From Saccostrea echinata (taxonomy: Eukaryota): 64,000 nucleotides of DNA. Positions 23,859 through 62,205 of this stretch are shown piece after piece. Under the pieces are notes generated by a model. That model was not told the origin of the DNA. It made no database searches and worked only from the letters and a program-made list of their open reading frames with translations. Where the stretch lies: NCBI RefSeq assembly GCF_033153115.1, contig NW_026889782.1:62001-126000 (forward strand), in the 5' to 3' direction. The translations under genes and the position numbers were made by a program. How positions within the stretch are numbered: the stretch's first letter is position 1; every line of letters begins with the position of its first letter.

Positions 23859-24542
23859 TTATATAGGTTGGTAAATGATCATCTCCTCACCCGGGAGGAT
23901 ACGAGACCTTAGTTGATACTCTCTGTTTTGTGTTGGTTCTAAACAAACATGCAAGTAACCGAAATTTGGTCGAGTTGCGGATTCGTATGCCGCTTTGAAA
24001 AAGGGGACCTGTCCTGGTAATATCTGAGATCCAAAAGTGATGATCTGTCTAGAATCACGGTAATTCTTAAACAAAATGATATTGAGGCAGTTCAATGAAA
24101 TGGTCCTTGCATATTTTCCCGGAGGATATAGGTTCTGGGACAACATCACTGTGGTCACGTTTCTGTGATGAGATGTCACCGTGAACAGATGTACACAGTC
24201 CTGAGATTGTGCAACTTGTAACATGAGATCATCCAGTATCAGTATGGTGTGATCCATACCCTCGGTGTACTGTTCTATGTCTTCTTTAGAAGGCAATCCT
24301 TGGTGTAATGATAAGTTTGGTATCGTCTGCACCATTTCCTCAAACATAGGTTGATGTTCAGAATAAGCATACACTATTCTATCCACAGGTATGGAAAACA
24401 TACCATTAGCGTTTTGTAAAAGTTTTTTAGTAAAATGCGTTTTTCCGCTTTGTGTACTACCACATATTAAAATGGTGGTAGGTGCAGAAAAAGGTAGCAA
24501 GGAACGGCTGTTCCACCATTTATTCATACTCTCTGTTTCCAT
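23859..24542 (-). CDS. A32/FtsK-like DNA packaging ATPase
   Basis: Walker A GSTQSGKT, Walker B ILILDD, SHHRN and LSQN motifs typical of Polinton ATPases. Confidence 0.95.
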   Translation of the reverse strand: METESMNKWWNSRSLLPFSAPTTILICGSTQSGKTHFTKKLLQNANGMFSIPVDRIVYAYSEHQPMFEEMVQTIPNLSLHQGLPSKEDIEQYTEGMDHTILILDDLMLQVAQSQDCVHLFTVTSHHRNVTTVMLSQNLYPPGKYARTISLNCLNIILFKNYRDSRQIITFGSQILPGQVPFFKAAYESATRPNFGYLHVCLEPTQNREYQLRSRILPGEEMIIYQPI

Positions 24543-24649
24543 GTTTCTCAGTCGCCAGACTTTTTCAAAATGAAGTTAGGTGCTATGTCACACACATATA
24601 AATATTTATTCAATTATAAAATAACTCCTGTATATACTTTTCATGATTT

Positions 24650-25117
24650 TTAATGATACATAAAATATTCATGCATAAAACTTTTTACAAAACCATCATT
24701 AGATTGAATGTCATTAGAAAATAAATCATACACATGACTGAACGAGTTTTTTAAACACAATCTTGCAATTAGAAATACTAATACATAAAGTCCACATAAG
24801 TCGGAATTACGAGGTTGAAGTCGAATGGATTTGAAACGACAATCAACACTGTTCATTTTCACAAAGTTTTGTATATCTTGACTGTAATCAGCTGGGGATT
24901 TTCCAAGGCTGTCGAAGAACTCTGCTTGCAATGGACTGTACACGATGATTGTCACCCAGTGTTCTCCGGGTAATGGTAAAGGTTGTGTATTGACGATAAA
25001 GGCGCTTGGAAATTCTGTAACCCTTTGAGGCAATATATTACTAGCAAATACACCTTTGACGTAACGTCTTAAGCATGGATTTGTCTTCACCATATTTAAA
25101 AGATGCGTTGAATTCTT
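24650..25117 (-). CDS. Adenain-like cysteine maturation protease
   Basis: GEHWV (His), FFDSLG (Asp), LQP..SDLCGLY (Gln/Cys). Annotated ATG at 25093; probable original start at 25117 (now AAG). Confidence 0.93.
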   Translation of the reverse strand, partial: KNSTHLLNMVKTNPCLRRYVKGVFASNILPQRVTEFPSAFIVNTQPLPLPGEHWVTIIVYSPLQAEFFDSLGKSPADYSQDIQNFVKMNSVDCRFKSIRLQPRNSDLCGLYVLVFLIARLCLKNSFSHVYDLFSNDIQSNDGFVKSFMHEYFMYH

Positions 25118-26430
25118 GGTTGAATGTAGTTAATGTCACGTGATTTGTCAACCTCAAGTAGGGATGAAAAAGTTGCAAATACAATGGCATTGACAGCTTT
25201 GGTTGTTGCTTGTTTGAATTTCAATTCCAGTCTGGTGTTTCCCCTACAAATCAGGTTTAAATACTCTTCTCCAAATCCACAAGGATCTATCGTAAACACA
25301 AAAAGTGAGTATCCATTTCCAAAATTATCACGAGAGATAATCAGTCCAGCATCGTTGTTCCATTTCCCAGAGGCTTCAAATAAACGAGCATAGGCGGCTG
25401 AATAATGTCCTGCCGTAAAGTCCGTCTTCAGTGGTCTTCCAGGTACGCTTTCTCCGTTGACGTATATCCCGATATCTGTTAATCCCATATGCTCGAAATT
25501 AAAGGGGTTGGCTGTGTAATCCCCATTCACAGCTTTCTGGTCCACCAGAGCCACCACGATTCGATCGGGTACTGCCTGTGGAAATATATTGTCCCAGTAA
25601 AACTCGGTAGATCCTTTGGGTATGGTATTCATTTTTAGTTCATTTCTTGATATGGTATACTTTACAGGGGTGGATTCGATCTGTTTACTATGGTTCAGCA
25701 GAACACCTGGATCAACACGTACTTTGGCCACTTTATACACGACGTCTTGTAATTCTAACTTGTAGGCTGGTGTAGAAGCGGCAGACATGATGACAAAAGG
25801 GGCACTGGATCTAAAGAGTTTGATGTAGATGTCTACTCCGTTTATCAAGTATTTATCTATATCAAAGATATCTTCCATCAGGTTCCCTTCCAGCTCAAAG
25901 ACTTTACTTTCCTGAGTGTAACCATACCGCAGGACCAGACCGGCATTGCCTCCATTGTATGCATTACCGTCGGCAAGATTTCCCTCGTCTTTAAAGAACA
26001 GCTCAGATTGTTTTTGTGAATTGAGTTCGTCTTTCCCGCTGAACAAAATTGTTTTGAGATAAGCCTTCCACGGGTAGTTATTGGTATTGAAAGAGACCAA
26101 TTTGTTGTTCAAGTAGACATCCATTTGGGAGAACATGCTTTGTAGAGGTAAGTTCACTACACCAGTTTCTTCGTTTGCTGCCAGTGCCGATCCATCTGCT
26201 TTCAGAATTCGGGCTTTTACGTATAGTTTACTTCTTTTTAAATCAATGTATTCTGCTCCTGAGCCTGACACTACGATCTCAATGGGTGTGTCAGACACTC
26301 CTATGCTAGAAATTGGTCTTGCTTCTGTAAAATACACTTTCTCGACCGCTACTTGGTTTGTGGGGGATGCAAAAAGAGAGAGTTCCATTGGTTGTGCTAT
26401 GTCTTTATTATCACTGCTTAAAAATGCCAT
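25096..26430 (-). CDS. Major capsid protein (double jelly-roll, Polinton PY)
   Basis: 444 aa; ELSLF..P, YIDLKRSKLYVK, NNYPWKAYL, P.RIVVALV..AVNG..NPFNF motifs; position between protease and minor capsid. Confidence 0.92.
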   Translation of the reverse strand: MAFLSSDNKDIAQPMELSLFASPTNQVAVEKVYFTEARPISSIGVSDTPIEIVVSGSGAEYIDLKRSKLYVKARILKADGSALAANEETGVVNLPLQSMFSQMDVYLNNKLVSFNTNNYPWKAYLKTILFSGKDELNSQKQSELFFKDEGNLADGNAYNGGNAGLVLRYGYTQESKVFELEGNLMEDIFDIDKYLINGVDIYIKLFRSSAPFVIMSAASTPAYKLELQDVVYKVAKVRVDPGVLLNHSKQIESTPVKYTISRNELKMNTIPKGSTEFYWDNIFPQAVPDRIVVALVDQKAVNGDYTANPFNFEHMGLTDIGIYVNGESVPGRPLKTDFTAGHYSAAYARLFEASGKWNNDAGLIISRDNFGNGYSLFVFTIDPCGFGEEYLNLICRGNTRLELKFKQATTKAVNAIVFATFSSLLEVDKSRDINYIQPRIQRIF

Positions 26431-26432
26431 TT

Positions 26433-26948
26433 TTACAGCTTGAAGATACTTCTGTAGCTGTCAATATTAAATTCTTTCTTTTTTCTAGACTGTGTTTTCT
26501 TGCTTGGCACTCGTCGCTGTTTCTTAACAGACGTCTTTTTCTTTTCTCCGGTGGTCTTTCTTTGTTTGGGTTTAGATGCCTGTTTTCTCCTCGGAGTTTG
26601 AGATGTTGTTGGCTTCAATTTCTTTGAAGGAATGACAGAAGATTCTGTACGTGGCCTTTTTATACTTCCCTGCACTTTGACAAATGGAGCTCCCTCTTTT
26701 ACATCCTTGGCATGTTCCACTTTAGCTCTTTCCTCCACGGCAGCTACAGGGGTCACTTGAGTGCTGTTTTCTACTGATTCTAACTGTGAGTGAGGCCTCA
26801 GTGGAATGACATAAGACTTGTAACTTCTCACACCTCTCCCAATTTGTTTTGGTTTGTATTTGTAAGGGTTGAATTTTTTCTCTGCCATGTTCTTGTAGAA
26901 AGCTTCCCATATTTTGGGATCGCTGATGTAGGTCTGACTATTCATCAT
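26433..26948 (-). CDS. Lys/Arg-rich putative DNA-condensing core protein
   Basis: 171 aa, very basic C-terminal half, QIGRG motif; ATGA overlap with the upstream minor capsid stop. Confidence 0.75.
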   Translation of the reverse strand: MMNSQTYISDPKIWEAFYKNMAEKKFNPYKYKPKQIGRGVRSYKSYVIPLRPHSQLESVENSTQVTPVAAVEERAKVEHAKDVKEGAPFVKVQGSIKRPRTESSVIPSKKLKPTTSQTPRRKQASKPKQRKTTGEKKKTSVKKQRRVPSKKTQSRKKKEFNIDSYRSIFKL

Positions 26949-27367
26949 AAAACGTAAGGAAACTTTTTGAAATGAAGTGTTACAGTCACCGGTCCGTTTA
27001 AAAATGAAACTAAATTTCCTTCTCTGTCCGTTATATATATAGCAATCTGCTGTAATTGGCCAATTTTAACTGGAATGTAATAAGGTAGTGTGTAAGTGAT
27101 ATTTTCTGGTTTCTCTCCCAGGTATATGCGTCTTAGGAGGGGTGCCTCTTTCCCCCCAATAATTGTTTCCTCACAAATATCGCAACACACAAACAATTCT
27201 GATTTCTTCTTAGATGAAATCCAGCTCTCTGTAGAAAATTCTGTCAAGGCAACAGTCCAATATCCGTCAAATTGAATCTGTTTATTTAATTGAACTCGGA
27301 AGCAATGGGGTTTATTTTCAAAATATTCAGAGCTGTCCGTAGACGTCAATACCATTCGAACGCTCAT
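26945..27367 (-). CDS. Minor capsid / penton-like protein (single jelly-roll)
   Basis: LTS..S.EYF.N....F.V.L, W.VAL.E, LFVCCDI......G....LLR, PYYIPV, VTLHFKK pattern. Likely start is MSVRM at 27367. Confidence 0.85.
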   Translation of the reverse strand: MSVRMVLTSTDSSEYFENKPHCFRVQLNKQIQFDGYWTVALTEFSTESWISSKKKSELFVCCDICEETIIGGKEAPLLRRIYLGEKPENITYTLPYYIPVKIGQLQQIAIYITDREGNLVSFLNGPVTVTLHFKKFPYVL

Positions 27368-27402
27368 CTTGAATAGAGAGAAATTGCAGAAAATGGTGGC
27401 TT

Positions 27403-28561
27403 TTATTGTTTTTCGAGAGAACTCTCTGGAATCCATGAATTAAATTTCTTGGGCCATCCTTCCCATTTAACATAAACTTCATTGGTTGTACCACGACGCC
27501 TTCTTTTAAGTATTTTCTCCACTCTATAAGAAACATCTTCTGACTTTACGACTTTTTGAAGCTCAGACTCGTAGAAAGTACCTTCTATAGGGTCATCTGC
27601 CAAATCTTTTACTTTGTACACAGGTACTTGACCTCTTTTGTATCTTTCACTCACTTTAAAAAACTCTTCTGTCCATTTCTGCTGGTAGTCTCTTTGGAAA
27701 GGGTGTTTTAGCTGTGATATTCTGACATTATCTCCAATTTTTAATTTGAAAAAGGGTTTTACTCTTTTTTGCACTTTTTTTTTGCTTGAGTTTTTAGGCT
27801 GGTTCAGATCGTTTTTTGCCAGGTCTGGTTTTGTTTTCCCCGACAGATAAGCCGCTAGTCTTATTTCATCGGCATTCTCTTGCTTAACATTGGCTGGAGC
27901 ATTCCCCCCTAATGATCTGTGAGGTCTATTGTTGTAACTTTTCACCAAGTCTTGCAAGACATTCACAAAGCGGTAAGTTCGGTTCTTCATAAAATAACGA
28001 TACATTAGGTTCTTCATGGTACGAATAACCCTCTCGGCATAGTTTGCTTTTGTTTCATTTTGAGTGTACATGACGTTTATTCCCTCTTTCTTCAGAAATG
28101 TCTTTACCCAACGATTTTTAAATTCACTACCCTTATCTGTTCTAAGGGTCTTAGGTTTTCGTCCTCTTTGGAAAACTGATTTTAAACCGTCAACAATGTT
28201 TTGATGATGTTTATTTTTTAAGGGGATTATAAATAAATATCGGCTAAATATGTCAATAAGCACTAATAAGAATTTATAACCATCGTTATGGGATGCGATG
28301 TTTGAAACGTCTGCCAAGTCACCATCCCACATAGAATCGATCGTGTTCACTATCACCTTTGAACGCGGAAATTGTTTTACGAATGGGTTTATACAGACTA
28401 TAAGAATCTTCATTGTTTAAAAACTGTCTTATCCTTCGTCTACCAATCTTGTATTTGCCTTCCTTTTTAACAGCCTGATATAATTTTTCAGGCCCTGCAT
28501 ATGCCCCCGGTTTACCGGGAGTGTAGTAGAGCTCCCTCAAGTAATCCGTGTAGTCTGACAT
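27403..28561 (-). CDS. Retroviral-like DDE integrase with C-terminal chromodomain; one frameshift near 28371-28378
   Basis: N-terminal YY.P..PGAYAG; catalytic WDGDL, RTDKGSEF, AERVIRT; chromodomain YRVEKILKRR...VKWEGWPKKFNSWIP. ORFs 28319-28561 and 27403-28413 join by removing one base. Confidence 0.93.
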
Positions 28562-28834
28562 ACTGGAACATACTAACGATCTCTCTTCGACAGTAACATT
28601 TTATATCATTGTAAAAAAAAATACATCGCACGTTTGGAACTAGTTTATTTTGATATTGTTAGAATAAAATGATAACACAANNNNNNNNNNNNNNNNNNNN
28701 NNNNNNNNNNNNNNNNNNNNNNNNNNNNNNNNNNNNNNNNNNNNNNNNNNNNNNNNNNNNNNNNNNNNNNNNNNNNNNNNNNNNNNNNNNNNNNNNNNNN
28801 NNNNNNNNNNNNNNAATTATTTTAGTGTTCATTG

Positions 28835-29818
28835 TCATTCAAGATCACTCTCGATGGTTTCCATGTCTGGTAAATCACCCGCGTTACATTCCATCGACAT
28901 GTTGTCTTGTGGGTCGTAGCCAAAGGGGGTACATTCGGGACAGCTTAACATTCCAAGTTGATTTTGATGAGACTCACTGAGCATGCAAAGTTCAACGTCC
29001 TTTAGTTCTGGAACATATTCATGCATCTCCTCGATGACATCTCTAAGTCTGACAAATTTGTTTTTGTTCAGAGTAACACCTTTCCTTGTAGGTATAGGTT
29101 CTTGAACATTTTCTGGCTTCCAGAAGTGTCTTATGTCCACTGTCGGATAGCCTGGTGATAATGAAACGAACACACCTCCACCAACATGCCACTGTGCTTC
29201 TTCATCCTCTTTTCCAGTATTGTCTATGTAGTCTTGAATATCTGGTAAAAGAGATTCAAACTTTAACCAACGGGCTAAAGGAAAGGTAACTCCCTTCTTG
29301 GTGGCAATGAAACGACCATGTGATTCTGCGAGGTGACGGATGTGAACGTAAATCTCCCCCTTGAAAGGCATGACGGTGAGGAATAGATCATTAAAGTCGT
29401 CCAAACTTATCCTACATCTTGGCTCCTGAGACTGTTGATGATCAGCTTTCTTTGATTCGTTTCTGGAACCTCCTCTTTCTTTAGTACTGACGACTAATGA
29501 TCTTGCCATGACCAGCTTCTTTTCGTACTCAGACTTTGTGTCATCATCCTTATTCATCAGGAGTCGGGATAAGTCAGCTTGATTGGCTTTCATCAATGCC
29601 GTTCTAAGCCCCATAAAAGCTCTCGAACCTCGACGTAAAATGATGCTGATCAATTTCCTGTTTTTGTCATAGCTGGTTTTCTCAGCGTCTATCTGTTGTC
29701 TCATTTCATCAGTAATTATGTTTGAGGCGTAAAGATGCCCCGCAACAGGAACAGCCATCATTTTCTTCACCAATGTTGAGTAGTTTGACTTAATCACGTC
29801 TTGATGTTTTTGCTCCAT
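28835..29818 (-). CDS. CARD - PC4 - PC4 - Cys/His Zn-finger protein
   Basis: The first ~90 aa fit a CARD pattern (VIKSNYSTLVKKM...HLYASNIIT.EM...I.AEKT...KNRKLISII.RRGSRAF..L..AL..NQ.DLS.LL). Two PC4/Sub1 repeats (V.PFKGEIYVHIR...TKKGVTF...W; VDIRHFW...PTRKGVTL). C-terminal C..SESHQNQ....SCPEC. Confidence 0.85.
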   Translation of the reverse strand: MEQKHQDVIKSNYSTLVKKMMAVPVAGHLYASNIITDEMRQQIDAEKTSYDKNRKLISIILRRGSRAFMGLRTALMKANQADLSRLLMNKDDDTKSEYEKKLVMARSLVVSTKERGGSRNESKKADHQQSQEPRCRISLDDFNDLFLTVMPFKGEIYVHIRHLAESHGRFIATKKGVTFPLARWLKFESLLPDIQDYIDNTGKEDEEAQWHVGGGVFVSLSPGYPTVDIRHFWKPENVQEPIPTRKGVTLNKNKFVRLRDVIEEMHEYVPELKDVELCMLSESHQNQLGMLSCPECTPFGYDPQDNMSMECNAGDLPDMETIESDLE

Positions 29819-29888
29819 CTTTGTTGACGATAAGGATCTCACAAGGAGATTTGCTCAAGACTGATGAAAATTTTCAAAATGTTACAAG

Positions 29889-30062
29889 TTTATATATGAT
29901 TTAAGTCACGTGGCTCGTGACTGTAGACTCCCCCATGACGTCAGTGACTGTAGACTCCCCTCATGACGTCAGTGACTGTAGACTCCCCCATGACGTCAGT
30001 GACTGTAGACTCCCCTTAGAATGCGACTTTTCTCTAAACTGACTGTAGAAATTTGATGACTG
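29889..30062 (-). promoter_or_regulatory. Putative promoter of the CARD-PC4 gene: TIR-like repeat with 3 CRE sites, E-box and TATA
   Basis: ~27-bp repeats GTGACTGTAGACTCCCCCATGACGTCA; TGACGTCA at 29936, 29964 and 29991; CACGTG at ~29907; TATATAAA (minus) at 29889-29896. Confidence 0.7.
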
Positions 30063-30090
30063 TAAAACACGCTGGCTGTATATTTTGGCA

Positions 30091-30306
30091 TTACAGATCT
30101 TTATGGGTGTCCAGGTTTTGTGCATGAGATTGAGTTATTATTTGTAAATGTTTCTCCAGTATAGGACTTAAAATTTTTGATGCATGATTTATTCTTCTTT
30201 TAAATCGATATCTGTCCAAAGCCATGGTCATCCATTCTCCCTTCCGATCTTCATAGGGAATAAGGATGATCGTTTTTTTGTCTGAAAATTTCACAGTCTT
30301 GTCCAT
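30091..30306 (-). CDS. DP71L/ICP34.5/PPP1R15(GADD34)-like PP1 regulatory subunit (eIF2alpha phosphatase adaptor)
   Basis: KTVKFS (RVxF) followed by RKGEW...ALDRYRFKRRI....ILSPIL, matching the RxGxWxxxAxDRxRFxRRI signature. TATATAAA at 30350-30357. Confidence 0.88.
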   Translation of the reverse strand: MDKTVKFSDKKTIILIPYEDRKGEWMTMALDRYRFKRRINHASKILSPILEKHLQIITQSHAQNLDTHKDL

Positions 30307-30350
30307 TATCCCTCTTCTTTGACAATTCTACATTTTATTCCTGCAACGCT

Positions 30351-30791
30351 TTATATATGATTTTGTGCTTTTAAAATAGATCCATCCATATGATCTACAG
30401 ATGCTTTTAAGTACTGCCACTGTGTTTTACTCAAGGTAATTCCTTCGTTCCCCGGTTTTCCAGACTGAAATCGTCGTATGTCAACCTGTATGGTGTCATT
30501 GGCACATATCATGGCATATACTTCGTTGGAGAGTGGGTACCGATCCACGTATGAACATGTTTTAATTACATCTTTTTTCAATGTAGGGCGTAAAACACAG
30601 TCTACTTGGGTAGGTTTTTTCTTCTCGTGTAAAACACTGACAGCGATGCACAAAGAAATAATAAGTACAATCGCAAAAAAGCTAGGTATTACAATCGCGA
30701 TTTTTTTCTTCAACTTCTCTTTTAACATCCCTTTGCACTCATTACCACAATCACTTGTTAGAAGTTCCATCATTACCATTTGTTCAGCCAT
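30351..30791 (-). CDS. Transmembrane protein with C-terminal PC4-like domain
   Basis: KKK followed by hydrophobic IAIVIPSFFAIVLIISLCIAVSVL; later VDIRRF...KPGNEGITLSKTQWQYL (PC4 signature). TATATAAA at 30832-30839. Confidence 0.75.
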   Translation of the reverse strand: MAEQMVMMELLTSDCGNECKGMLKEKLKKKIAIVIPSFFAIVLIISLCIAVSVLHEKKKPTQVDCVLRPTLKKDVIKTCSYVDRYPLSNEVYAMICANDTIQVDIRRFQSGKPGNEGITLSKTQWQYLKASVDHMDGSILKAQNHI

Positions 30792-30881
30792 CTTTAAACA
30801 AAATGTTTTTGCTAGACTACTGCATTGCACATTTATATACATATGACCTCCGTGGGCGGGGTTTTGGAAAACCCCCTGATG

Positions 30882-31145
30882 TCAACTTGAACTGTACAAA
30901 TCAGATTCTCTTAAGACCTGTGGAAAGTATTTTTTCGGCATAACCCTACGTTTCAATATGTATTCTTCAGATCCCCAGCTGTCTGCAACGTCATAACCAT
31001 TTTTCATTTTTTCCTTGAAATCAACAATGCAATCTTCCTTTCTGTCAAACCATTGACTTTCTTGTAAAGTCCATTTCTTTTCATTTCTTCTTAAAGCATT
31101 CCAGGCTAAAATTTTCCATTTGTACTGCTTTCCCTGAGTTGCCAT
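30882..31145 (-). CDS. Trp-rich hypothetical protein (87 aa), first ORF inside the right TIR
   Basis: ATG GCA start, co-oriented with its neighbours; no recognisable domain. Confidence 0.55.
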   Translation of the reverse strand: MATQGKQYKWKILAWNALRRNEKKWTLQESQWFDRKEDCIVDFKEKMKNGYDVADSWGSEEYILKRRVMPKKYFPQVLRESDLYSSS

Positions 31146-31201
31146 CGTTATTACAAGGCAACTGAGATTTACAAGGTATTTATTCTTATTTTTTAAAAAT
31201 G

Positions 31202-31451
31202 TCAGTGACTGTAGACTCCCCATGACTGTAAAATCGTATGACCTCTAATGTTTGGAAAACCCCATGACGTCAGTGACTGTAGACTCCCTGACTGTAGACT
31301 CACTCTTTGCACTAAGGGAACCCATGACGTCATTGACTGTAGACTCCACCCTTGACTGTGACCTCTATTTTGACCTTTGTGGGTGGGGTCTGGAAAAACC
31401 CATGACGTCATCCTGACTGTAGACTGACTGTTCTCTGTCCCCCTTACTACT
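31202..31451 (-). repeat. Polinton right terminal inverted repeat
   Basis: Reverse complement of the left TIR: 60 bp perfect, ~250 bp imperfect. Confidence 0.95.
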
Positions 31452-31539
31452 ATAGATCTAAATTTGCATCCCACTAACGGCAATGGTGATGTCTCAATAT
31501 GAGTGAAAAAGTCTCGAGAGGTACCTTAAACAAACAAAA
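31452..31539 (+). mobile_element. tRNA-derived SINE, 3' part
   Basis: Continues the SINE consensus (AAATTTGCA...ATATGAGTGAAAAA.TCTCGAGAGG...AAACAAACAA). Confidence 0.9.
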
Positions 31540-32502: not shown

Positions 32503-35199
32503 CCAGAAGTCTCTGATGAGACTGTAGCTCTACTGGTCTGTTTGTATAACAAAAGAAAAGTAGCACTTGGATTTGAAACATTGCAACATGCAACAATAAA
32601 TAGAATTATGTATCTTAATGTAGTCTACTTTTGTGACAAGTTATATTGAAATCAAATGAAAACTAGGAGTAGTAGCGTTTTGAAAGTATTTCACGGAAAT
32701 TTCTATTTTTAGTACCGGTAACCATGACAACACCATTCACCCAAATAAAAAAACAGAAATACATATTATGTATCGTAGTGTATTCTAACTGTGTGCCAAA
32801 TTAGATTGAAATCAGACCAAAATTGTAGGAGGAGTAACGTTTTAAAGGAATTTCACAGAAATTTCTATTTTAAGTAACCATGGCAACACTGTTCATCGAA
32901 TTCAAAAACCAATGCAATAAATTATGTATCTTAGTATAGTCTTCTTGTATGCCTAATTATATTAGAAGCAGACTAAAACTGTAGCAGGAGTAGTGTTTTA
33001 AAGGAATTTCACAGAAATTTCTATTTTTAGTAACCATGGCAACACCGTCCATCGAAATCAAAAACCGATGCACTAAATTATGTATCTTAGTGTAGTCTAC
33101 TTGTGTGCCAAGTTATATTGAAATCGGACCAAAACTGTAGGAGGAGTAGCGTTTTAAAGGAATTTCACAGAAATTTCTATTTTTAGTAACCATGGCAACA
33201 CCGTCCATCGAAATCAAAAACCGATGCACTAAATTATGTATCTTAGTGTAGTCTACTTGTGTGCCAAGTTATATTGAAATCGGACCAAAACTGTAGGAGG
33301 AGTAGCGTTTTAAAGGAATTTCACAGAAATTTCTATTTTTAGTAACCATGGCAACACCGTCCATCGAAATCAAAAACCGATGCACTAAATTATGTATCTT
33401 AGTGTAGTCTACTTGTGTGCCAAGTTATATTGAAATCGGACCAAAACTGTAGGAGGAGTAGCGTTTTAAAGGAATTTCACAGAAATTTCTATTTTTAGTA
33501 ACCATGGCAACACCGTCCATCGAAATCAAAAACCTATGCAATAAATTATGTATCTTAGTGTAGTCTACTTGTGTGCCAAGTTATATTGAAATCGGACCAA
33601 AACTGTAGGAGGAGTAGCGTTTTAAAGGAATTTCACAGAAATTTCTATTTTTAGTAACCATGGCAACACCGTCCATCGAAATCAAAAACCGATGCACTAA
33701 ATTATGTATCTTAGTGTAGTCTACTTGTGTGCCAAGTTATATTGAAATCGGACCAAAACTGTAGGAGGAGTAGCGTTTTAAAGGAATTTCACAGAAATTT
33801 CTATTTTTAGTAACCATGGCAACACCGTCCATCGAAATCAAAAACCGATGCACTAAATTATGTATCTTAGTGTAGTCTACTTGTGTGCCAAGTTATATTG
33901 AAATCGGACCAAAACTGTAGGAGGAGTAGCGTTTTAAAGGAATTTCACAGAAATTTCTATTTTTAGTAACCATGGCAACACCGTCCATCGAAATCAAAAA
34001 CCGATGCACTAAATTATGTATCTTAGTGTAGTCTACTTGTGTACCAAGTTATATTGAAATCGGACCAAAACTGTAGGAGGAGTAGCGTTTTAAAGGAATT
34101 TCACAGAAATTTCTATTTTTAGTAACCATGGCAACACCGTCCATCGAAATCAAAAACCGATGCACTAAATTATGTATCTTAGTGTAGTCTACTTGTGTGC
34201 CAAGTTATATTGAAATCGGACCAAAACTGTAGGAGGAGTAGCGTTTTAAAGGAATTTCACAGAAATTTCTATTTTTAGTAACCATGGCAACACCGTCCAT
34301 CGAAATCAAAAACCGATGCACTAAATTATGTATCTTAGTGTAGTCTACTTGTGTGCCAAGTTATATTGAAATCGGACCAAAACTGTAGGAGGAGTAGCGT
34401 TTTAAAGGAATTTCACAGAAATTTCTATTTTTAGTAACCATGGCAACACCGTCCATCGAAATCAAAAACCGATGCACTAAATTATGTATCTTAGTGTAGT
34501 CTACTTGTGTGCCAAGTTATATTGAAATCGGACCAAAACTGTAGGAGGAGTAGCGTTTTAAAGGAATTTCACAGAAATTTCTATTTTTAGTAACCATGGC
34601 AACACCGTCCATCGAAATCAAAAACCGATGCACTAAATTATGTATCTTAGTGTAGTCTACTTGTGTACCAAGTTATATTGAAATCGGACCAAAACTGTAG
34701 GAGGAGTAGCGTTTTAAAGGAATTTCACAGAAATTTCTATTTTTAGTAACCATGGCAACACCGTCCATCGAAATCAAAAACCGATGCACTAAATTATGTA
34801 TCTTAGTGTAGTCTACTTGTGTGCCAAGTTATATTGAAATCGGACCAAAACTGTAGGAGGAGTAGCGTTTTAAAGGAATTTCACAGAAATTTCTATTTTT
34901 AGTAACCATGGCAACACCGTCCATCGAAATCAAAAACCGATGCACTAAATTATGTATCTTAGTGTAGTCTACTTGTGTGCCAAGTTATATTGAAATCGGA
35001 CCAAAACTGTAGGAGGAGTAGCGTTTTAAAGGAATTTCACAGAAATTTCTATTTTTAGTAACCATGGCAACACCGTCCATCGAAATCAAAAACCGATGCA
35101 CTAAATTATGTATCTTAGTGTAGTCTACTTGTGTGCCAAGTTATATTGAAATCGGACCAAAACTGTAGGAGGAGTAGCGTTTTGAAAAATTGTTTACAG

Positions 35200-35234
<35 letters not shown>

Positions 35235-35295
35235 GACGGACGACGGACACCTTACTATCGCATAAGCTCTTCTGGTCTCTGACCAGTAGAGCTAA
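32503..35295 (+). mobile_element. HINE / pearl (CvA)-like element with 156-bp satellite array
   Basis: Subterminal IR TAGCTCTACTGGTC (32525) / GACCAGTAGAGCTA (35281); ~16 tandem 156-bp units; (ACAG/ACGG)n microsatellite at ~35196-35248; 3' hairpin CTGGTCTCTGACCAG. Confidence 0.88.
32715..35183 (+). repeat. 156-bp tandem repeat array, ~16 copies
   Basis: GTAACCATGGCAAC recurs every 156 bp (32874, 33030, 33186 ... 35058). Confidence 0.97.
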
Positions 35296-35949
35296 CAAAC
35301 AAAATCACTACTATTCAAAGTTGGGTAGATGCCTTTTTGATATTTTCAAGCATTTATCTTGCTAGGCACACTTCAGATATTCAGGGCCATATTGAAATAT
35401 ATGCACATGGTACGCCTATGCTAAAGCCGAAACACAAATGCTAACCGGCTTGAATATGAAATAAAATGTCAAAAAATACATCCATTTCATCCAAAAGCAC
35501 CACTTAAATGTTTCGATAACAATGTCAAAGGCTCATGCTCCAAACCCCCGTGTTTCTACCAGCATGCATGCATGAACTGCAACAAAGCCCATCCACTTAT
35601 ACACTGCTGGTCCTACCAGTCGACGCTAACTCAATTTTCAAGACCTAATCCCAACCATCCAATATCGAGCCAGCAAAATCATGAACAACAACCTAACATT
35701 AGGTTAAATCCAACTCATCCAATCGCGGGTCAGCAAAATTATACCCAACAATCCAACATTAATTTCTGACCCTATCGCCCAAAGCAATACCAGACACCAA
35801 GACCAAGATTTAACACGCCTAGGTTCTACTCCAATTTAGCTCCCAATACTTCAGAAATACCTAGCTCAGTATCCGCAAATTCAAGATGTCCAACTGTTAC
35901 TTAATGGATTTACATCTGGTTTTTATCTGAATTATGCAGGTCCAAGAGA

Positions 35950-60701: not shown

Positions 60702-62205
60702 ATGGCTGAGTCTAATGAATATATGGATCAAAGTATAAATTCAAGCTTATTTAAATCTTTTTCTGGACTTACACAATCATTTGATGGAGATGAAAATATC
60801 ACTACTACTGATGTGAGTATACCACACTTTCTAAATGTGACATATAACAAATACAGTATAACTGTGTCCTTCCAACAAGAAAAATATGTAACTATTTTGA
60901 ACTATTTAAAAGAGGAACTAAAAACAAAGAAATGGGGAAAAATGGACAAATTTTCAAGTCTGATTGTGATTCTGTGACGGCCACACTCTATGCTGGGACT
61001 AGCGTCTTACACATTCAAGGTTCGTCGGCAAATACCTGGCTTGACAAATTCATTCACGACATCAAGAGCAAAGACATTAACAATATTAGTAATGTTCTGG
61101 GACAATCATCACCACAAATGGCATCAACTCCAGTTAAAAGTGCTTCTCTTGTGTCGACCAGTGAGTCAAGTGATGTACAAAATTGTACACAGTGTGCGAG
61201 TACAATTCAATCTCTACAACTGGCTATCTGTAATTTAGCTAAAGAATTACAAGAATTAAAAGAAAAATTAAAATGTCAAAAAAAGAAGACGATCACAACA
61301 AACCAATACTTATTGACAAAAACACTCAGACATCAATCAAGGTTGTGAAAAACAAGGAAACAGACGTACATGGTTTAAGATCTGCACCAACGAATTCCAT
61401 ATCTAGACACACTCAGTGCGAACATTCTTTACCGGTAAAGAAAACAAAATGCACAGCTGATTTTGGTACAAACACTGAACCACACAACCACCCAATACAT
61501 ACACCTGCAAGATCCATGATTGAAGAAAAGGAAAAATCCGGTGACACAAAACGTATAATTGGCAGTTCAATCCTACAACGGGTAAGAACCAGAGGACTAC
61601 AAAAGGGTGTTCATGTAAGAACAAATAGAGGGGCTAAACTTTCCCACAGCAAAGGTAAACTTCTCAAAATAAATGTAGCAGAATACTCCCACATCATTAT
61701 CCAAGCCGGGGGAAATGATGCCTCATCTCATCGAGACATGGACGCCATTGAACATGATGCCGCGGAAATCATCTCCAACATCAAACATCGTTCTCCGGGA
61801 ACCAAAGTATATTTTTCCGAAGTATTACCAAGACGGGATGTGGATGTATCTCATGTGAATACCACACTAAAATATGTATGTGATGAATATGGAGGTGTCT
61901 TTATTTCCAACAAAAGTGAATTCAAGGAGGTAAACCGTGTGCATTATTGGAAAGACGGTATTCATCTTTCAGACAAGGGGACGTCAATGCTACTTAAACG
62001 GATTAACAGCGAAGTTTCAATTCTGCGTGTGAATTCCGGTCGAACCAGTACGGACTCCAATGCAAGCTTTTATCAGTCTGTGACTTGCTACTTCTGTAGC
62101 GAACACGGACACACATCACGCCACTGTAGACATGGACGAAAGCTTGACTGCTGGAACTGCGGTGAATTAGGACACAAGACGAAATCCTGTCCATACATGT
62201 ACTAG
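60702..62205 (+). CDS. LINE ORF1 (coiled coil, SGNH esterase-like domain, two CCHC knuckles); two frameshifts
   Basis: IIGSSI, QAGGND, KDGIHLS; CYFCSEHGHTSRHC and CWNCGELGHKTKSC. Three overlapping ORFs shift frame near purine runs at ~60935 and ~61280. Confidence 0.85.

Follow-up and report, generated by a model that had tools for sequence, protein, structure and literature searches.

A PC4-like domain on a predicted membrane anchor: a candidate type II glycoprotein of Maverick/Polinton elements in Saccostrea echinata

Near one terminus of a Maverick/Polinton element of Saccostrea echinata lies a short gene, here called TM-PC4, in which a hydrophobic helix precedes a PC4-like domain. Which side of the membrane would such a domain face, and would it still bind nucleic acid there? 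We examined these questions in the window, the whole 64,000-nucleotide stretch of DNA analysed, and in homologues from the same genome and from sequence databases. Table 1 lists the features concerned.

Table 1. Features of the TM-PC4 gene and of the element that carries it (window positions)
Feature	Position	Strand	Basis or remark
TM-PC4 gene	30351..30791	-	ORF of 146 aa, membrane-anchored PC4-fold protein
TATA box TATATAAA	30832..30839	-	sequence and position relative to the Met codons; promoter function inferred
N-terminal tail, residues 1-30, ending K24-K30	30702..30791	-	predicted cytosolic, from charge bias
Hydrophobic helix I31-L54	30630..30701	-	predicted uncleaved signal-anchor
Stalk, residues 55-78	30558..30629	-	low model confidence
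PC4 fold, residues 79-142	30366..30557	-	predicted homodimer, predicted luminal/extracellular
Cys79	30555..30557	-	predicted disulfide partner of Cys96
Cys96, where PC4 has DNA-contact residue R75	30504..30506	-	mapping onto human PC4
N-glycosylation sequon N98-D-T100, turn of PC4 stacking residue F77	30492..30500	-	mapping onto PC4
Maverick/Polinton element	7604..31452	.	Pfam, terminal arms, homology limits
Terminal arms	7604-7886 and 31151-31452		inverted repeats, 74% alike
Protein-primed PolB, split	15681-23130		Pfam DNA_pol_B_2
Packaging ATPase	23859-24542		Pfam Pox_A32 E=4.8e-4, under cut-off
Major capsid	25096-26430		DJR-like E=3.9e-3, under cut-off
Integrase	27403-28413		Pfam rve + chromo
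CARD + two soluble PC4 domains	28835..29818	-	Pfam CARD E=1.1e-12, PC4 E=1.6e-13 in two stretches

A second in-frame ATG at 30842 would lengthen the TM-PC4 ORF by 17 residues. It lies immediately 5′ of the TATATAAA box, whose start is followed 48 nt downstream by the ATG at 30791. The homologues start at the residue encoded by ATG 30791. The box position and the homologue starts therefore favour 30791; the longer start, abutting the box and not common to the homologues, was rejected. The preliminary description of this DNA had pointed to a basic stretch followed by a hydrophobic helix of about 24 residues, with basic residues on both flanks. Both points hold in the 146-residue ORF, where K24–K30 precedes the helix I31–L54 and HEKKKP directly follows it. 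The best 19-residue Kyte-Doolittle mean of the helix is 2.95, and it is also a helix in the AlphaFold models. Net charge in the window copy is +4 before the helix and +1 after it.

The C-terminal part had been read as a PC4 domain, and structure prediction, Foldseek and VIA-align bear this out. Pfam PC4 (PF02229) matches the window copy at E=1.1e-4 with 22.1 bits, against a gathering score of 25, and it matches 48 of 75 family members at E≤0.01, the best at 1.8e-9. A profile of 19 homologues matches human PC4 in three sequences, with E values between 1.4e-9 and 3.1e-9. Two AlphaFold models, with mean pLDDT of 75.5 and 82.6, fold residues 81–145 into four strands and a helix, and the second reaches 93–98 per block over the PC4 domain. 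The top PDB rows in Foldseek are all PC4/MoSub1; human PC4 (1pcf) is found with prob 1.00, E 0.014, TM 0.81 on the target and rmsd 1.7, and no match in PDB or BFVD reaches E≤0.001. VIA-align ranks human PC4 first, with Z 8.2 and rmsd 1.1 Å over 60 residues. Rows for GPX4, KIT and ErbB2 (E≥0.1) were taken as chance or generic helix matches. Aligned to human PC4, TM-PC4 keeps the signature D84-I-R86 and G102-I-L...QW.

The fold of four strands and a helix is common to TM-PC4 and PC4/Sub1 (PF02229; human PC4 1pcf/6ycs, MoSub1 4bhm, phage T5 homolog 4bg7). For TM-PC4 a homodimer like that of PC4 is a model prediction. The two-copy model of residues 72–146 scores 0.72, the best of 3 controls scoring 0.00, and the runs share at least 98% of contacts with pLDDT of at least 78. 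The mark for a dimer was reached by 21/30 solved pairs and 0/23 single chains from microbes, and by 17/29 solved pairs and 0/30 single chains from eukaryotes, including 1/7 without an older solved relative. Since PC4 dimers are already solved, the pass may reflect structures that the predictor had already learnt; the model shows likeness to PC4 dimers, not binding.

The gene set of the element recurs in other element copies, and the homology shared with them stops at about 31452. Two more genes without a Pfam match are presumably the protease (24650–25093) and the minor capsid protein (26945–27436), going by motifs and gene order. The element is damaged, with PolB in three pieces. One interruption, of about 2.7 kb (18785–21489), has short inverted ends at 18834–18863 and 21384–21413, and a further break lies near 22430–22462.

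TM-PC4 had been counted as the third PC4 domain of the element, which is correct: the neighbour at 28835–29818 has a CARD and two PC4 stretches. That protein also has a C-terminal Cys/His motif, and is possibly a death-fold decoy joined to a nucleic-acid-binding module; here it was used as a soluble control for TM-PC4. Between the two genes, a 71-residue ORF (30091–30306, minus strand) carries an RVxF-like motif with a weak Pfam PP1c_bdg match (E=0.0019). It recurs beside TM-PC4 in copies L031, L086, L087 and L088. From its motif we take it to resemble eIF2-alpha phosphatase recruiters of the GADD34/DP71L/ICP34.5 type; no paper on a PP1/eIF2-alpha recruiter in Polintons was found among the matches listed. 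The CARD and PP1-binding neighbours look like host modulators and would suit a cluster directed against the host in this lineage.

Short repeats of the terminal arms recur internally at 29910–30030, upstream of the CARD-PC4 gene, and at 31200–31430; they are possibly promoter or replication signals. The stretch 30900–32900 matches G000:C6:13717889-13719891 at 100% through the element end into the flank, so the G000:C6 copy is a segmental duplicate or a haplotig. Other copies match the element part only, at 92–100%, which suggests recent mobility. Elsewhere in the window, tandem repeats with a unit of about 156 bases (32700–35300; inverted related copy near 230–813) are unrelated to TM-PC4, and an ORF (61273–62205, plus strand) has SGNH/GDSL-like and zinc-knuckle domains, which are typical of a retroelement ORF1.

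TM-PC4 is not confined to this copy. The S. echinata genome (923 Mb) holds 82 TM-PC4 matches among 101 scored candidates, and a divergent member used as query gives 86 matches among 96 candidates. We examined about 10 kb around 32 of these copies, chosen for diversity. Homologues of integrase, capsid, protease or ATPase lie within that stretch in 22 of the 32; two more have an element in the adjoining stretch, and eight have none within about 5 kb. The place of the gene varies across Maverick copies, with at least six arrangements: close to the terminus ahead of CARD-PC4, immediately before the integrase, between the minor and major capsid genes (7 loci), immediately after the protease (4 loci), between ATPase and integrase, and beyond PolB.

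Several copies show local peculiarities. Copies L027–L030 form a subfamily whose stalk is about 20 residues shorter, in frame, with helix, Cys pair and sequon kept. A TATA-binding-protein homolog (L047:4317-4805, minus strand; Pfam TBP E=4.9e-24) lies between TM-PC4 and the integrase in another copy. A divergent TM-PC4 adjoins a RING-finger ORF (L036:6887-7435, minus strand) and a soluble PC4 ORF (L036:5419-5862, plus strand), and this cluster is placed beyond PolB of a larger element.

The TM-PC4 family is mostly under purifying selection, including the helix. dN/dS is 0.07–0.47 in the 9 computable copy pairs with dS of at least 0.17. Three near-identical pairs give 0.43, 0.45 and 1.49, the last at a dS of 0.02, and one other pair is saturated. 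In the helix pN is below pS in 12 of 13 copy pairs. Homologues with as little as about 20% identity still have the helix. The membrane segment is shared by the homologues, which do not start downstream of it.

A profile search of 1.84 billion representatives returned 953 matches at E≤0.001, of which the best 150 were used; 144 of these were new. Among these 144 new 50%-identity clusters, all from the best 150 of the 953, 93 have a single PC4 domain with an upstream hydrophobic helix, 24 have several PC4 stretches and 27 are partial or helix-less by the cut-off; because the helix is part of the retrieval profile, proteins with a helix are over-represented in these proportions. Of the 24, two combine a helix with two PC4 domains, and one more is a helix-PC4 protein that was placed in the wrong bin. 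None of the 93 has a second hydrophobic window. In IMG/VR viral contigs 43 pattern matches to TM-PC4 gave 0 confirmed, and phage records queried with a divergent member gave no match. ESM Atlas yielded no usable match either, which speaks neither for absence nor for novelty. An unrooted tree of 60 columns and 90 domains was built without host PC4 from 46/115 single-domain TM, 4 tandem TM, 30/76 soluble and 10 Maverick soluble rows. A branch with support of 99/95, in a bootstrap that had not settled, separates the 50 TM rows from soluble PC4.

One raw RNA run gave 0 reads for TM-PC4. Contigs from one RNA run spread over all 30 bins, intergenic DNA included. Fourteen RNA runs had shares of ≤0.20, and 4 of them were examined; no splice joint within the TM-PC4 ORF was found in the contigs examined.

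The more positive flank of a membrane helix stays cytosolic, sequons and conserved disulfides mark luminal domains, and selection for Thr sequons is known. We took the charge difference as C minus N over 15 residues on each side of the helix. In a first set of 98 full sequences from 151 matches, which form 22 clusters at 70% identity, it is negative in all 22 clusters. C-side sequons number 38 in this set against 18.1±3.8 expected (NxT 31 against 8.2, NxS 7 against 9.9), with 2 on the N side against 4.1. The 93 new representatives from the best 150 of the 953 matches provide a largely independent test of these signals. Among 85 of them, 69 have a negative charge difference, 11 a difference of zero and 5 a positive one. 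They have 196 C-side sequons against 92.1±8.7 in shuffled sequences, including 134 NxT against 48.6, with 1 NPS/T against 2.7. Five look-alike motifs show no C-side enrichment, and the N side has 18 sequons against 23.4 expected. At least one sequon is present in 91/93. As a soluble control, the 24 multi-PC4 proteins of the same best 150 have 40 sequons against 44.7 expected.

Six other Maverick proteins served as controls. Five show no sequon enrichment, and the integrase is enriched, 20 against 9.0. Its excess owes much to one site, present in 18/25 alignments, showing that kinship can inflate pooled sequon counts. The follow-up on kinship used the 84 of the 93 members (best 150 of 953) that could be mapped. 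At the main site, before Cys79, 57 members have N and S/T, 3 have N only, 9 have S/T only and 15 have neither (Fisher 5e-8). N and S/T are also coupled in the strand 3–4 loop (Fisher 5e-5). Outside the main site the stalk still holds 51 sequons against 29.9±4.6. Another sequon is found in 25 of the 27 members that are without the main site, where 14.6±2.5 are expected, and the x position is filled by 16 different residues, never Pro. The coupling, the stalk excess, the replacement sites and the x diversity count against shared ancestry alone as the cause of the sequons. Without the loop site, the PC4 domain and tail in this best-150 set are unenriched (26 against 31.1).

Stalk sequons are present in most homologues and absent from the window copy. 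It is also without the main sequon and has N98-D-T100 instead, in which N98 and T100 are at least 90% invariant among 32 close homologues. The Cys96 equivalent is present in 93/93 and the Cys79 equivalent in 89/93 TM representatives of the best 150, and the spacing of the pair is 17 in 81 of 84 mapped members; the pair is absent from ordinary PC4. Sorting motifs are rare in the same set (YxxΦ 6/85 with 15 expected, di-Leu 2/85), and KDEL/KKxx-like ends occur in 1/93. The preliminary description had leaned to a type II topology. The charge bias (22/22 and 69/85), the sequons on the C side only and the fixed Cys pair strengthen that leaning, and it is very likely that the PC4 fold faces the lumen or the exterior, as a predicted glycoprotein.

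The ssDNA contacts of PC4 are described in PMC4350104. R70, R86, R100 and K101 contact the backbone, and R75, F77 and W89 are further contacts. F77 and W89 are the stacking residues, and F77A or W89A abolishes binding. D84, R86, P98 and S73/R75 form one nucleotide subsite. In the window copy R70 is replaced by V, R75 by C, W89 by Q, R100 by N and K101 by E, and at F77 the turn is one residue shorter and carries the sequon. Of the seven DNA contacts only R86 is left; D84 and P98 are also kept. With most ssDNA contacts replaced, DNA binding is unlikely there, and the window copy is probably no ssDNA binder. The proposal that a nucleic-acid-binding fold stands in the lumen or outside the cell thus survives as to the location and, for the window copy, probably not as to the binding.

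The change extends to the family. Among the 93 TM members from the best 150 of the 953 matches, replacement at R70, R75, W89 and R100 is seen throughout the family. I, V or L stands at W89 in 70, Ile at R100 in 63 and Cys at R75 in all 93. S/T at S73 persists in 76 of the same members, D84 in 83 and R86 in 86; 44 have K/R at K101, and 34 have Tyr at F77. The retention of S73, D84, R86, K101 and Tyr77 means that a reduced pocket may survive in part of the TM family, and this part may bind polyanions. The domains of the multi-PC4 proteins (n=83, best 150) have Tyr at W89 in 67, an aromatic residue at F77 in 71 and Lys at K101 in 74.

We propose that TM-PC4 is a conserved Maverick accessory gene whose product, a type II glycoprotein, uses the PC4 fold as a dimeric module for binding a host partner, and we consider this fairly probable. 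At the ER the helix would act as a signal-anchor that is not cleaved, leaving the basic N-tail cytosolic and the C-terminal part N-glycosylated in the lumen. A C79–C96 disulfide would pin the stalk to the edge of the old DNA groove, and two chains would pair in the PC4 manner. The protein would then travel to the cell surface, which it probably reaches because sorting motifs are scarce. There the remodelled face, with aliphatic residues at the W89 and R100 positions and the S73, D84 and R86 equivalents kept family-wide, would bind a host surface protein or glycan. Such binding would damp immune recognition or exclude related elements. The preference for a host partner over an envelope function or a nucleic-acid decoy is tentative.

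One competing explanation leaves the topology as it is and lets the glycoprotein keep its ancestral job, binding nucleic acid or another polyanion outside the cell or in endosomes, where it would help uptake or be a decoy for nucleic-acid sensors. The S73, D84, R86, K101 and F77 equivalents partly kept in the 93 members, the role of D84, R86, P98 and S73/R75 as a PC4 nucleotide subsite (PMC4350104), and the median domain net charge of +2.5 in the best-150 set speak for it. It is nevertheless unlikely, given the family-wide replacement at W89, R70, R75 and R100, a sequon in the strand 3–4 loop adjoining W89 in 27/84 members of the same set, and, in the window copy, Glu in place of K101 together with the sequon in the F77 turn. 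TM-PC4 might instead have a structural role, as a protein in the membrane or envelope of Maverick particles that helps them attach or leave. The gene is kept in at least six positions, and its place inside the capsid gene block in several lineages suits a virion role; a gB-like label also appears among the nematode element maps in the supplement of the adintovirus paper (PMC8502044). This is quite unlikely all the same, because the ectodomain is small (about 90 residues) with no fusogen-like part and the window gene has its place close to the terminus, with CARD-PC4 and PP1-binding genes as neighbours. We know of no demonstration of enveloped particles for Maverick elements.

The preliminary description had also raised the opposite topology, with the PC4 fold in the cytosol or nucleoplasm tethering viral DNA to a membrane. 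The basic HEKKKP after the helix of the window copy, the positive charge difference in 5/85 homologues (best 150 of 953) and the retained R86 would suit such a tether. Sequons confined to the C side, the invariant Cys pair and the lost DNA contacts would be hard to explain in a reducing, non-glycosylating compartment, and they leave this possibility very improbable. It is barely credible, finally, that the ORF is a chance read-through or a decaying fusion, with the hydrophobic stretch outside any real protein. The damaged host element, with PolB in pieces, would allow for it, but the helix is conserved to about 20% identity under purifying selection, and no splice joint inside the ORF was found in the RNA-run contigs examined. 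At the family level a read-through artefact is refuted by the selection and by the helix-PC4 layout of the 93 members from the best 150 of 953.

TM-PC4 differs from PC4/Sub1 in adding a membrane anchor, a stalk, a Cys pair and N-glycan sequons, and in the replaced R70, R75, W89 and R100 positions. It is a PC4 derivative by descent and fold and not a PC4 member in the functional sense, because most ssDNA-contact residues are not retained. With soluble Maverick and adintovirus PC4 genes (lancelet adintovirus MOSUB, and CARD-2xPC4 in the window) it shares the fold and the element type. The BFVD match to the lancelet adintovirus 'MOSUB' has an E of 0.05, and the MOSUB label stands in a supplementary map of PMC8502044. 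Soluble PC4 genes on Maverick-like elements are thus already known, under that label. The soluble PC4 domains sampled, a sample without the MOSUB sequence, have no helix, are not rich in sequons and keep the aromatic and basic DNA contacts, in contrast to TM-PC4.

Adenovirus E3-type proteins are small single-pass immunomodulatory glycoproteins, encoded in the accessory regions of viruses that belong to a related group. They are mostly type I, with folds other than PC4. The analogy to TM-PC4 is functional only; no sequence or fold link was found.

A literature search, with most subscription journals outside its coverage, turned up no account of a PC4 with a membrane anchor or with glycans. The terms 'membrane', 'secreted' and 'glycosyl' were not found in the available text of a review of PC4-like domains (PMC7549692), nor were PC4, MOSUB and transmembrane in that of the main text of PMC8502044. 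The main text of bioRxiv 10.1101/2023.10.06.561300, as far as available, has no match for the searched terms, and in the accessible part of PMC11662393, which combines PC4 and Polinton, PC4 is an unrelated table label. What is new in TM-PC4, and strongly supported, is a known fold with a change of compartment.

PC4-like folds are described as intracellular nucleic-acid binders, and TM-PC4 is a case of such a fold changing its compartment and probably its ligand. It is possible, though doubtful, that animal Mavericks made the PC4 fold into a receptor family of the cell surface or the virion membrane, in which members with Tyr77, Arg86 and Lys101 would catch extracellular nucleic acid, either to mislead host sensing or to assist entry, and derived ones like the window copy would have switched to protein or glycan ligands. 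If so, Mavericks would engineer host membranes or carry membrane in their particles. With TM-PC4, animal Mavericks, which are often regarded as transposons, have a conserved predicted glycoprotein of the secretory pathway. Such a protein would be most sensible if Mavericks act at the cell surface or between cells, and TM-PC4 thereby bears on the question of a true viral phase of Mavericks.
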